DNA of 64,000 nt from Planctomycetota bacterium (GTDB lineage Bacteria; Planctomycetota; PLA2; JAEUHO01): the NCBI GenBank assembly GCA_965223505.1, contig CBDCWP010000007.1:66640-130639 (forward strand), written 5' to 3'. This document shows positions 19,547-62,679 of this stretch, piece by piece. How positions within the stretch are numbered: position 1 is the stretch's first letter; each line of letters opens with the position of its first letter. The notes under the pieces are model-generated. The model ran no database searches, was not told the DNA's origin, and was given only the letters and a program-made list of their open reading frames with translations. The translations under genes and the position numbers were made by a program.

Positions 19547-20938
19547 ATGAGCGACGTGGCGTTCCTTCGCGGACTTCTGGCTTTCCAGAGCCTGACCGAG
19601 GAGGACGCGGAGCGTCTGCTGGCGAGCAGCCGCAAGGAGACGTTTCCCCCCGACACCAAGATCCTCCAGTTCGGAGAGTCGGGGGACACGATGTACGTCA
19701 TCGTGGAGGGAGAGGTGGAGGTCAGCGTCCCCGATCAGAAGGGGCGGGCGACCTTCCGGGTGTTTCTCGACCGCGGCTGCATCTTCGGCGAGATGGCGCT
19801 GCTGACCGGCGATCCGCGCAACGCCGACGTGATGGTGCACGGCGACCGGCCGTGCGTGTGCCTCGTCCTCGAGAAGGCCGCGGTGCTGTCGCTGATCGCG
19901 GAGCACCACGACATCGCGCAGTTCCTGACCGAGATCTTGGACAAGCGCCTGCGCGGGGCCGACTCGGTGCAGCGCATCGGCCGGTACCAGGTGTTGTCCG
20001 TGCTGGGGCGCGGCGGGATGGCGACGGTCTTCGAGGCCTTCCATCCGATCCTGCACCAGACCGTCGCGATCAAGCTGCTCGCGCATCGGCTCGTCCACCA
20101 GCCCGGCTTCTCGGCGCAGTTCCAGGAAGAGGCGAAGCTCATGGCGTCGCTTCGCCATCCCAACATCGTGCGCGTCTACGACGCGGCGGCGGGGTACGGC
20201 ACCTACTACATCGTGATGGAGCGCCTCGACGGGGACGACCTCGACAATCTCGTCAAGTTGCAGGGGCCCATGGGCATCGGCCAGGCGCGGCGCGCGCTGC
20301 TGGCCGCGTGCCGCGCGCTTCATTACGCACATGAACGGGGTGTCGTGCATCGCGACGTCAAGCCGGCCAACATGTTCCGCGAGGCCAACGGTCACATGAA
20401 GCTCGTGGACTTCGGCGTTGCCGCCGCCGGCGTCGTCAGCCGGTGCAATCCCGACCTCCCGATTCTCGGCTCGCCGGAGTATGCCGCGCCCGAGCTGTTG
20501 CAGGGGCAGCCCGTCGATCGCCGCGCGGACATCTACTCGCTCGGCATCACGGCGTTCCATCTGCTCACCGGCAAGCTCCCGTTTCCGGCCGCGCCGATCA
20601 CCGAAGCGATCGCGGCGCAGATCGGGCACGACCTTCCGGATCCGCGCGCGCTGCGTCCCGAGCTGCCGGACGACTTGCTCACGTTCATCACCCGCGCGAC
20701 GGCGAAGGATGCCGCCGAGCGCTTCCAGACCTGCGTCGAGGCGGAGAAAGTCCTTCTGGAGGGGCTGCGCGGCGACGATACCGGCCAGCTCAGGGCCCGC
20801 AGCGTGAAGCTGTTCTTCGAGAAGGGCGACGAGGAGCACGCGGACTTCGTTTGCGAGCGCATTCGCGAGATCGTGGACGAGACCGCGCGTGTCACCGCGG
20901 ACATGGACGGCGCGGATTCCGTGAGTCCCGACGAATGA
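19547..20938 (+). CDS. Ser/Thr protein kinase with N-terminal cyclic-nucleotide-binding domain
   Basis: GESGDTMYVIVEG...FGEMALL...RNADV (cNMP domain); GRGGMATV, VAIK, HRDVKPAN, DFG and APE. Confidence 0.9.
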   Translation: MSDVAFLRGLLAFQSLTEEDAERLLASSRKETFPPDTKILQFGESGDTMYVIVEGEVEVSVPDQKGRATFRVFLDRGCIFGEMALLTGDPRNADVMVHGDRPCVCLVLEKAAVLSLIAEHHDIAQFLTEILDKRLRGADSVQRIGRYQVLSVLGRGGMATVFEAFHPILHQTVAIKLLAHRLVHQPGFSAQFQEEAKLMASLRHPNIVRVYDAAAGYGTYYIVMERLDGDDLDNLVKLQGPMGIGQARRALLAACRALHYAHERGVVHRDVKPANMFREANGHMKLVDFGVAAAGVVSRCNPDLPILGSPEYAAPELLQGQPVDRRADIYSLGITAFHLLTGKLPFPAAPITEAIAAQIGHDLPDPRALRPELPDDLLTFITRATAKDAAERFQTCVEAEKVLLEGLRGDDTGQLRARSVKLFFEKGDEEHADFVCERIREIVDETARVTADMDGADSVSPDE

Positions 20939-21012: not shown

Positions 21013-22050
21013 ATGAGACTCGCCACCGTTCTGTTCCTGTTGCTCCTGTTCCCCGGCCTTCCGGCGATTGCCGAAGAAGGCGACGAAGAGGAGAAGCCCA
21101 AGGGCGAAGAGGGGGAGCGGCCGGGCGGTCCCGGCGGCCGGCGCGGCGGTCCGGGCGCGGGGCGCGGCGGCATGGGCCGCGGCGGCTCGATGTGGGACCG
21201 CGTTCGTCGCTTCGACAAGGACGGCGACGGCAAGGTCACGGCCGAGGAATTCACGGGCCCGCAGCGCTTCTTCGACCGGATGGACACCGACGGCGACGGC
21301 TGCATCACCAAGGACGAGGCCGAGGCGATGCGCGGCGGCCGCGGTCAGGGCGGCGGTGGCCGCGCGGGCGGTCTGAGCCCCACTGCGATCGACACCGACA
21401 AGGACGGCAAGGTCTCGCAGGCCGAGTGGACGGCGTGGTTCGAGAAGGCCGACAAGAACGGCGACGGCGAGGTGGACACCCACGAGTGGGCCGCGGCCTC
21501 GACGGGGCGGGCGCTTCGCGATCCCGCGCCGAAGGTCGGCGACGCCGCGCCCAAGGTCGAAGTCGAGTCGCTGAAGACCCGCAAGCTCGTCGACTTGAGC
21601 GCGCCGAAGCGCACCACGGTGCTGATCTTCGGCTCCCACACCTGAGGGCCGTTCACGAAGCAGGCGGATCGTCTGCAATCGGTCTACGAGGCATACAAGG
21701 ACAAGGCCGATTTCTATCTCGTCTACATCCGTGAAGCGCACGCGAGCGACGGCTGGCGACCTGCCTCGCACGTCGACATTCCGCAGCCGACGTCGTTCGA
21801 CGAGCGCTCGGGCGTTGCGGGCAGCTGCTCCGAGGCGCTGAAGCTCACGATGGAGTTCCTCGTCGACGACATGAAGGACACGGTCGCCAAGGCGTACAAC
21901 GCCCATCCCGACCGGTTGTTCATCCTCGGCGCGGATGCCAAGGTCGCGTACCGCGGCGACCGTGGTCCGCGCGGCTTCAAGGTCGACGAGATGGAAGCCG
22001 CGTTGAAGAAGATCGTCGCGGCGTCCGAGACGACCGAGTCGAACGGCTAG
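21013..22050 (+). CDS. Secreted EF-hand / iodothyronine-deiodinase-like selenoprotein (UGA 21643-21645 = Sec211 predicted), 345 aa
   Basis: Signal peptide and four EF-hand loops, then LIFGSHT-TGA-GPF continuing in frame into VYIREAHASDGW and AYNAHPDRL to TAG 22050. Confidence 0.85.
21646..21685 (+). promoter_or_regulatory. Candidate bacterial SECIS element
   Basis: Upper stem GCAGGC/GTCTGC (21660-21676) with GGATC loop starting at +21 from UGA; lower stem GGCCG/CGGTC. Confidence 0.6.
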
Positions 22051-22387
22051 GTAGGGGGGTGACCCTCGTGGTCGCCCAACCGTTCGTCGATCGTGCACGG
22101 AGGCATGGCCGGTTGGGCAGCCACAAGGGCTGCCCCTACATGCGATTCGTCACGTGATCGTGCACGACACCTGTAGGGGGGGGGACGACCCTCGTGGTCG
22201 CCCACCGTTCGTCGATCAGGCACGGAGGCATGGCCGGTTGGGCAGCCACAAGGGCTGCCCCTACATGCGATTCGTCACGTGATCGTGCACGACACCTGTA
22301 GGGGGGGACGACCCTAGTGGTCGCCCACCGTTCGTCGATCAGGCACGGAGGCATGACCAGTTGGGCAGCCACAAGGGCTGCCCCTAC
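22051..22387. repeat. Three tandem REPIN-like units (inverted GTAG-REP pairs, period about 122-125 bp)
   Basis: Units start at 22051, 22173 and 22298: GTAGGGG..GACCCTCGTGGTCGCCC-spacer-GGGCAGCCACAAGGGCTGCCCCTAC; identical linkers; lies between convergent genes. Confidence 0.85.
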
Positions 22388-61329: not shown

Positions 61330-62679
61330 CTAGTGTCCCATCACCTCGGGCCGCGGTCTCGGCACCTTGAAGTCGACCTGAATCGTCTCACCCTGCCGGA
61401 CCACCTTCAGCTTCACCTTCGCACCGGGCTGTTTCTCGCGCATCAAGTAGGCCAGGTACGTGCTGCGGGTCCAGCCCGACTTGCCGTCCACCTCGACGAT
61501 GAGGTCGCCGCGTTGGAGCTTGTTGAAGGGCTCCCGGTTGGACTTCTTGAACCACCCCGGTGAGCGTCGGGCCACCCGGACCCCCTTCGGGTCGTCGGCC
61601 AGGGACACGCCGCCCCAGAGCCACATGGCATAGCCGGCGACGCGGTAGCGCCAACCGAAGTCGCCCTCGCGGCGCCAGCCGTCGGCCAACTCGAACGTGA
61701 GGTCGTGTGACGCGCCTTTGCGATCGATCTTCGCGGGCATCGTTCCGCCCTCATCGGGAAACGTGTGCAACACCCACTGCAGGTCGGCCACGGAACACAG
61801 AGGCTGGCCGTCGAGGAACCGAATGTCGTCGCCCACCTGCAGACCCGCTTTCGCAGCCGCGGAGTCGGGTTCGACGGCCGTGACGCGCGCGCAGTGGTCC
61901 TTGCTGAGCGTGAGTCCGAGGATCGACGGGAGCGGATAGACCCACAGCTCACGGTCCGGCAAGGCGCGCTTCGACATGAAGTGCGAGTCGATCACCATCC
62001 GCTGCACTTCGTGGCAATGTATGCAGCCCTTGGTGTCCGTGTTGCGAACGCGGCCGGGCCGCTTGTACTTGCGCGCGGACGGCGTCTTTTCCGGAGACGG
62101 CCACGGAGGAGCGGCGCCGGTCTTCGCGGCCAGCGTCTTGCGCGTCGCAGGATCCTTGCGATAGGCCTCGTCCAGAAGCAGCGCCCGCCTGAGCGCCGCC
62201 ACGATCCCCGCCACGCTGTGATTCGGGTTCGAGTCGAGCTTGTTGCGATTGGCCTGCGGTGAGGCGGTCCCGTAGCGCCCGTAGATCGTCTTGTCGGGGT
62301 GCATGAGGAACACCGCCCACGACAGGAACGGGTCGAACTGGAACGTCGCCAGGTCCGCGCCGCCCATCTGCACGATGCGCACGCACACGAACCGGTCCAT
62401 CAGCTTGCTGAGCTCTTCGTCCTGTCGTCCGACCAACTGGCCGTCGATGCTCGCGCAGCCTACTCATGGGACGCAGCGGAAAGAGACGAGCATGGGCTTG
62501 CCGGCCTTCTCGGCCTCGGCGTACCCGGCCTCGATGTCGTCGTAGATCCAGTCCCCGGAGAGCAGCTTGTCTCCCAGGGCGTCTTTCAACTTCTCGTCGT
62601 CGCCGAAGCTCGAAACCGCCGTCAAGACGCAGATCGAGCCCCAGACGACGAGAAGTGCCGGCGCGAGGGTTCGTTTCAT
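61330..62679 (-). CDS. Secreted thioredoxin-like/PDZ-domain selenoprotein (UGA 62464-62466 = Sec72 predicted), 449 aa
   Basis: Signal peptide, WIYDDIEAGYAEAEKAGKPMLVSFRCVP-TGA-VGC, in frame with the downstream 368-aa ORF (CIHCH and two PDZ-like domains). Confidence 0.85.
62422..62458 (-). promoter_or_regulatory. Candidate SECIS element of the Trx/PDZ gene
   Basis: Upper stem ATCGAC/GTTGGT (62448-62432, two GU pairs) with GGCCA loop starting at +22 from UGA. Confidence 0.45.

Follow-up and report, generated by a model that had tools for sequence, protein, structure and literature searches.

A predicted exported EF-hand selenoprotein with a deiodinase-like domain and a putative resolving cysteine in a Planctomycetota bacterium

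Introduction

Does the in-frame TGA of a gene for an EF-hand protein in a Planctomycetota bacterium end the protein, or is it read as selenocysteine (Sec), and what might the longer product do? The gene lies in a stretch of 64,000 nucleotides of contig CBDCWP010000007.1, which is the window analysed here, and an earlier reading made from the letters only (the sequence-only reading) had taken it for a hidden selenoprotein. Passages of PMC1088965 described bacterial deiodinase-like selenoproteins in 2005 and suggested a redox function for them. An EF-hand fusion of a deiodinase-like protein was reported in 2021, with extra conserved cysteines noted (PMC9402790, Fig. 2B and passages of the text), and no mention of EF-hands was found in 12 of the 17 supplementary files of that paper. 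The function is called largely uncharacterised in passages of a 2026 review (PMC13188914). Both the family and its fusion to EF-hands have been published before, and the gene itself is no new kind of system. What is added here is a resolving-cysteine hypothesis and a candidate reductant system. In addition, a predicted soluble, two-domain and well-modelled protein offers a practical route to the function of bacterial deiodinase homologs, a question standing since 2005.

The gene and its parts

With TGA translated as U, positions 21013-22050 (+) form a single frame of 345 aa that stops at TAG 22048-22050, and the sole recoded codon is TGA 21643-21645 (residue U211). Pfam T4_deiodinase (PF00837) matches residues 174-333, across the TGA, with an E-value of 3.5e-32 and 112 bits against a gathering cut-off of 27, and the four matches of Pfam EF-hand_5 are all located upstream of this domain. 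The parts of the gene are listed below.

21013..22050, +: whole gene, 345 aa, Sec at 211 (frame and Pfam domain spanning the TGA)
21013..21072, +: predicted Sec-type signal peptide, residues 1-20, cleavage after AIA (by eye)
21073..21189, +: linker, acidic and then Gly/Arg-rich, predicted disordered, of variable length (pLDDT 43-56; poor ortholog alignment)
21214..21318, +: EF-hand pair 1, loops at residues 68-79 and 91-102 (motif and Pfam; pLDDT 91-96)
21391..21486, +: EF-hand pair 2, loops at residues 127-138 and 147-158 (motif and Pfam; pLDDT 84-94)
21520..22017, +: deiodinase-like thioredoxin-fold domain, residues 170-335 (PF00837; model; Dio3 fold match)
21643..21645, +: TGA, almost certainly read as Sec, U211 in S-H-T-U-G-P-F (TGA in orthologs, TGC elsewhere, Sec machinery)
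21660..21676, +: predicted upper stem and loop GAU of a bacterial SECIS, G at 21667 (folding; conservation of G25)
21724..21741, +: YIREAH, with Y238, E241 and H243 (Dio3 Y197, E200, H202; 4tr3 alignment and conservation)
21826..21828, +: C272, putative resolving cysteine, on the helix after the deiodinase loop (covariation; helix 262-275)
21913..21915, +: R301 (Dio3 R275; in 118 of 118 TGA alleles and 145 of 150 representatives)

The sequence-only reading had carried the frame past the TGA to the TAG that ends at 22050, which the translation bears out, and the segments that it quoted, namely LIFGSHT-U-GPF, FYLVYIREAHASDGW, AYNAHPDRL and four EF-hand loops, were all found as written. The signal peptide, Gly/Arg-rich linker and four EF-hands that it had placed upstream are likewise present, the first judged by eye and the EF-hands by Pfam. 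Databases carry the gene as a 210-aa form and related genes as EF-hand proteins of 190-213 aa; the annotation of such genes as short EF-hand proteins is a systematic error, corrected here.

Selenocysteine at the TGA

Could the host decode such a codon, and is the codon kept by its relatives? Both checks had been proposed with the selenoprotein claim. As for the Sec machinery, selA (507 bits), selB (336), selD (338) and tRNA-Sec (69) were all found above cut-off in the host genome, which is 92% complete; ARAGORN reports a tRNA-SeC with anticodon UCA, and the host selD itself has an in-frame TGA. As for Cys/TGA alternation at the catalytic column, 17 TGA and 5 TGC were observed among the 22 other domain-bearing loci, which come from 41 genomes. 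The close orthologs (50-64% identity, motif U-G-P-F) have TGA in 13 of 13 cases, and 136 of 145 family representatives have C at the catalytic column. Therefore, the claim of a selenoprotein is supported by the Sec machinery, by the conserved TGA in orthologs and by TGC in other homologs, and there is hardly any doubt that the UGA encodes selenocysteine within one protein.

The recoded form is widespread. In the order-level survey, 21 of 40 genomes have a match, and the 33 matches comprise 26 with one TGA, 5 full-length Cys forms and 2 fragments beyond the column. At the phylum level, 104 of 301 genomes have up to 5 matches each, and 139 of the 150 matches contain TGA; the position of the TGA was verified in the fetched phylum loci only, where the codon stands at the Sec place in 19 of 19 new TGA loci. 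Metagenomes scanned with the motif yielded at least 120 stretches, the domain being present in 109 of those listed, and a contig scan with the Cys pattern gave 17 loci, by design Cys forms only. A contig of run X1, identical over 21133-21650, extends just 5 letters beyond the TGA; it was left uncounted because X1 is possibly the source sample itself. The host genome also has a second paralog, L009 (G000:C24:60994-64488, -), with EF-hands and the motif Y-T-U-Q-P-F. This paralog groups with a second clade, and within that clade some of the family's genomes switched to Cys. Cys alleles were also considered as a sign of lost Sec machinery, an idea rejected since 4 of the 5 Cys-form genomes have selA and the fifth is 57% complete.

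The hairpin after the TGA

A hairpin, GCAGGCG-GAU-CGUCUGC, is found at 21660-21676, and its loop G at 21667 is nucleotide 25 counted from the U of UGA. The mark of a bacterial SECIS is a guanosine in a small apical loop, as given in passages of PMC1088965. The presence of a hairpin after the UGA, already noted by the sequence-only reading, was confirmed, and family members keep both its position and its loop G, but its stability alone does not exceed chance: z is -1.3 to -1.5 in three of four folding windows and 0.04 in the fourth, and 23% of synonymous shuffles fold as well as the native hairpin. Stability was consequently rejected as proof of a SECIS, given the weak z and the fact that Cys alleles also fold hairpins at that place.

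The loop itself is more telling. G25 is found in 120 of the 124 distinct TGA alleles but in 7 of the 17 Cys alleles, and the loop rule is passed by 82 of the 124 versus 5 of the 17; note that the 124 alleles were mostly picked by the U-G-P-F pattern and that many are kin. A repeat of the count on phylum loci not picked by motif found G25 in 18 of 19. The G is kept across different codons (Gly 92, Val 19, Glu 4, Ala 4, Asp 1), and the present gene is the only one among the 124 with an Asp codon, with the G retained at the loop start. When 18 sequences were forced into a fixed 6-pair register, pairing was 74% versus 67% in shuffles (1 of 500); in the same register only 2 pairs changed on both sides, and 448 of 500 shuffles scored as high. 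The weak pairing in a fixed register arises because the stem shifts register between lineages. The hairpin of the host SelD gene is without G at the loop start. With these data, it is very highly probable that the UGA is decoded by SelB at the predicted hairpin.

Could the TGA instead be a normal stop, or the result of a nonsense mutation or of an error in sequencing? Any of these would leave a 210-aa EF-hand protein. TGA ends 591 of the 1504 long genes of the host genome, the databases hold the 210-aa form, and the hairpin alone is not significant. However, all 13 orthologs, with identities of 50-64%, have the TGA in this column and it alternates with TGC, the SECIS G signature is present, and conserved coding sequence follows. 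In that sequence, the earliest in-frame ATG, GTG or TTG 3' of the TGA is M280, beyond the conserved YIREAH as read off the frame, so that a separate second gene is impossible. A plain stop or an error is therefore already refuted by conservation, and we regard it as extremely improbable.

Predicted export and EF-hands

The signal peptide was judged by eye (MR, a hydrophobic core and AIA|EE), and the orthologs with the start included have similar hydrophobic N-termini. The protein is thus predicted to be exported, which we consider very likely. The loops of EF-hand pair 1 follow the canonical D-x-D-x-D-G-x-[VI]-T-x-x-E, and the ortholog clade keeps four canonical loops; in all likelihood the four EF-hands would bind calcium. 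NCBIfam lanmodulin (NF053806) scores 30.9 bits, below its cut-off of 135, and NCBIfam XopAW 42, below its cut-off of 120; these weak matches reflect the EF-hands only. The mark of lanmodulin is a Pro at loop position 2, and the loops here have no Pro at that position.

The family counts 6585 clusters at 50% identity. Among the best 150 representatives, the 71 longer than 300 residues were scanned for fusions, with EF-hands in 33, TPR in 5, and BNR, HEAT and CarboxypepD_reg among the others; 38 of the 71 have no EF-hand match at E 1e-6, and the EF-hand motif is missing from 16 of the 19 phylum TGA loci. Where EF-hands occur in the family, they lie before or after the deiodinase-like domain. Because EF-hands are optional in the family, they are most likely a calcium-stabilised tether or scaffold rather than a switch. 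Three proteins (P0122, P0123 and P0137) have two deiodinase-like domains in tandem.

Fold and active site

The model of the domain (95 sequences) has a pLDDT of 97.7 and a pTM of 0.93. Foldseek on this model places Dio3 (TM 0.83) and Dio2 (0.81) first, followed by ResA, DsbE and BCP proteins (0.56-0.69). In the wide structure search, Dio3 has a Z of 22.7 (rmsd 3.3, 172 residues aligned) and the next chain 16.8; the next-best folds after the deiodinases are SdbA, DsbE and ResA (Z 16.6-16.8), and any peroxiredoxin is at 16.4 or below. In the sequence alignment the domain matches mouse Dio3 (4tr3) with an E-value of 3.9e-21, and Dio2 (9h48) was also aligned at U211. An EF-hand protein with a deiodinase-like domain of oxidoreductase fold, as first proposed from the letters, agrees with Pfam, with the domain model and with the Dio3 fold match, and the UGA does fall on the catalytic Sec, since in the alignments U211 is paired with the catalytic residue of mouse Dio3 and of Dio2. 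In the full-length model (21 sequences), both EF-hand pairs are confident and the linkers disordered; no fixed docking of the modules is predicted, because the pTM is 0.63 versus 0.93 for the domain alone.

Compared with Dio1-3 (4tr3/4tr4, 9h48), the fold, S-x-T-U, Y-x-x-E-A-H, the D-G-W loop and the Arg275 equivalent are alike. The Dio3 residues S167, T169, Y197, E200, H202 and R275 are kept as S208, T210, Y238, E241, H243 and R301, and Y238, E241 and H243 each occur in 129 of 129 TGA alleles. The differences are as follows. The proximal Cys168 is missing, its place being H209; the place of His219 is P259, with Pro in 109 of 125 TGA alleles; and the place of the distal Cys239 is Met280, about seven residues after Cys272, which lies on a helix. 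Here the motif is U-G-P-F, with a predicted cleavable signal peptide, EF-hands and an in-frame bacterial SECIS, whereas the animal enzymes have U-P-P-F and a membrane anchor. Here the sequence-only reading has to be amended: it had called SHTU unusual in place of SCTU, whereas Cys at that place is rare in bacteria, found in 5 of 131 TGA alleles (F 56, Y 41, W 13, H 12, C 5, L 3 at the residue two before Sec), and mouse Dio2 has SAT before the catalytic residue. One metagenome sequence, L137, combines S-C-T-U with a His219 equivalent and a Cys at the Cys239 place, and looks like an animal-type deiodinase.

As for the bacterial relatives, the gene shares PF00837, the Sec/Cys alternation and the SECIS loop G with the deiodinase-like selenoproteins in passages of PMC1088965 and of the reviews PMC9312934 and PMC13188914. 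The motif in the passages of the two reviews is UxxC; here it is U-G-P-F with the second Cys 61 residues downstream. The EF-hand-fused protein of PMC9402790 is likened to it from passages and a figure legend of that paper. NCBIfam deiodinase_rel (NF038285) also covers the EF-hand part, and both the EF-hand and the deiodinase parts match the profile, with a score of 211 bits, below its cut-off of 250.

A movable second cysteine

If the proximal cysteine is missing, which residue could resolve an oxidised Sec? Among 275 distinct domains, counted where both columns are filled and Cys or Sec is at the catalytic place (other rows being dropped), C272 stands alone in 221 and the proximal Cys alone in 15; no domain has both, and 39 have neither. 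The last group has a Cys at 269-273 in 20 domains, at 215 in 6 and elsewhere in 8, and 5 have no second Cys. In a tree of 55 rows, built without the two Cys columns and with the animal-like L137 left out, it takes 6 changes to account for the 14 proximal-Cys rows, with at least 5 of these changes on well-supported branches; all 14 rows have Phe at 272. A single clade of proximal-Cys rows was rejected (p-AU 4e-39).

Because C272 and the proximal Cys exclude each other, C272 is probably the resolving cysteine, acting through a Sec211-Cys272 selenenylsulfide. Note that the covariation itself shows one cysteine taking the place of the other, and does not show a bond of either with Sec. Passages on the animal enzymes give the proximal Cys as the demonstrated selenenylsulfide partner in DIO1 (PMC9141512) and the distal Cys as dispensable in assays of Dio3 and DIO1 (PMC12025243, PMC9141512). 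Peroxiredoxins relocate their resolving Cys among several places, helix alpha3 included (passages of PMC4749874), and in our reading of the topology of the model the C272 helix would correspond to this alpha3. Neither a cysteine swap nor a biochemical study of a bacterial enzyme was found in the literature covered, subscription papers lying outside the search. The exclusion of Cys272 and the proximal Cys gives a specific, testable catalytic cycle, which is new with respect to the literature covered.

Candidate redox partners

The neighbours of the gene are a cNMP-domain Ser/Thr kinase on one side and a convergent hemF on the other. When 512 frames from 93 loci were clustered, local synteny only was seen (convergent hemF at 5 loci, dinB at 2, kinase at 2), and neither a conserved functional partner nor a halogen-metabolism neighbour was found among them, nor a conserved neighbour suggestive of calcium control. 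A heuristic scan of the whole host genome gave 139 UGA-joined frame pairs, 68 with a hairpin. Of 34 pairs picked by eye and read through, 22 match Pfam (TlpA-like, Trx-like, MsrA, ArsC, CMD, HMA, DUF3179 and FG-GAP) and 12 have no match; the latter may include unlisted families, and one candidate, L237, is probably an ordinary stop. It is plausible, judging from these frames, that the host genome is rich in selenoproteins, with about 30 UGA-recoded genes (loci L206-L238), most with apparent signal peptides, and at least 14 of the UGA candidates have a thioredoxin fold.

Among them, a DsbD-like protein and six AhpC-TSA/Redoxin (TlpA-like) candidates have U-x-x-C and apparent signal peptides. 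The DsbD-like membrane protein, L222 (G000:C11:6804-7664), has FTADW-U-ATC in its C-terminal thioredoxin domain and is a candidate electron source for exported selenoproteins. Together, the DsbD-like and TlpA-like candidates could recycle the present enzyme, the basis being their co-occurrence in one genome.

Proposed function and its rivals

What does the enzyme act on? We tentatively favour, at somewhat less than an even chance, an exported selenol reductase of small oxidants in the cell envelope. Sec211 would attack a hydroperoxide, hypohalous acid or haloamine, Cys272 would resolve the oxidised Sec211, the DsbD-TlpA relay of the host genome would recycle the enzyme, and the EF-hands would hold calcium and serve as a tether; in this mechanism the reductant and the class of substrate are the least secure parts. 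A generic envelope role agrees with the occurrence in 104 of 301 genomes, the varied fusions, the missing conserved pathway neighbours and the presence of the DsbD-like and six AhpC-TSA/Redoxin candidates in this genome. The domain shares with the atypical 2-Cys peroxiredoxins (Tpx, PrxQ/BCP) the thioredoxin fold, S/T-x-x-C(U), a distant Arg and a second Cys on a later helix that is movable in evolution. However, it differs from them in the extra deiodinase loop and in the PxxxT/SxxC motif, where L204 stands in place of the required Pro (Leu in 268 of 298 rows, Pro in 0 of 298), and its fold resembles Dio3 (Z 22.7) far more than it does any peroxiredoxin (16.4 at most).

These points bear on a reductive dehalogenase, one of the two activities named by the sequence-only reading, in which Sec211 would remove I or Br from a halophenol or halotyrosine that His243 and Arg301 hold in place, and Cys272 would resolve the selenenyl halide. 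Dehalogenation fits the active site as well, because T210, Y238, E241 and H243 are nearly invariant in the family; the closest structures are Dio3 and Dio2, and S208, R301 and the D-G-W loop are also kept. According to passages on the animal enzymes, His202 of Dio3 binds the phenol and Arg275 the carboxylate (PMC12025243), and the loss of the His219 equivalent need not kill activity, as DIO1 H174A is active (PMC9141512). Nevertheless, this reading remains rather doubtful in view of the Pro at the His219 place, the lack of halogen-metabolism neighbours among the 93 loci, and the wide spread, many paralogs and varied fusions, which suit a general role better. Moreover, selenol chemistry works poorly on aryl chlorides, and iodo-aromatics are scarce outside the sea. 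A bolder version, which we deem unlikely, would have real halo-aromatic dehalogenases in about one third of the searched Planctomycetota genomes, fed by a selenium-based DsbD-TlpA envelope relay and keeping the ancestral deiodinase cycle with the helix Cys272; the animal-type proximal Cys would then have arisen by a swap on at least five occasions within the family.

Instead of a small molecule, the substrate could be oxidised envelope proteins (disulfides, sulfenic acids), repaired by a TlpA/ResA-like reductase to which the EF-hand or TPR modules bring the client. The next-best folds (SdbA, DsbE and ResA), the fusions to protein-interaction modules and the many thioredoxin-fold UGA candidates of the genome point this way, but the U-x-x-C motif is missing, and the 25-residue deiodinase loop and E-A-H, not present in TlpA-type proteins, suggest a small-molecule pocket, which makes such a repair enzyme quite unlikely. 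Calcium gating, that is, a redox sensor or switch in which EF-hand calcium controls access to Sec211, would fit the four canonical loops kept in the ortholog clade and the recurrence of EF-hands on either side of the domain; it is improbable given the long representatives and phylum TGA loci that have no EF-hand and the absence of predicted fixed docking.

Other observations in the window and beyond

A second UGA-recoded candidate is found in the window at 61564-62679 (-), with TGA 62464-62466, Thioredoxin_7 and PDZ domains and FRCVP-U-VGC. It appears to be exported and resembles the Trx7/PDZ selenoprotein family, its 3' end being traced to 61564. Elsewhere in the genome, L230 and L236 (G000:C21:433635-434918, -) form one frame with two in-frame TGA codons and a haem-type motif CAKCH, probably a two-Sec exported cytochrome. 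The upstream neighbour of one ortholog, L015 (G012:C334), combines thioredoxin-like and TPR-like parts with FFLPG-U-GPC, and is a second likely selenoprotein.

Around the gene itself, no match to a sigma-70 promoter or an intrinsic terminator was found. The upstream gene, 19547-20938 (+), joins a cNMP-binding domain to a Ser/Thr kinase, and the ortholog in genome G003 is also preceded by a kinase gene. Right after the stop codon, at 22054-22387, a 125-base repeat that includes a REP-like palindrome is present in 2.7 copies, and its 25-base core occurs 142 times in the genome with no more than two mismatches.
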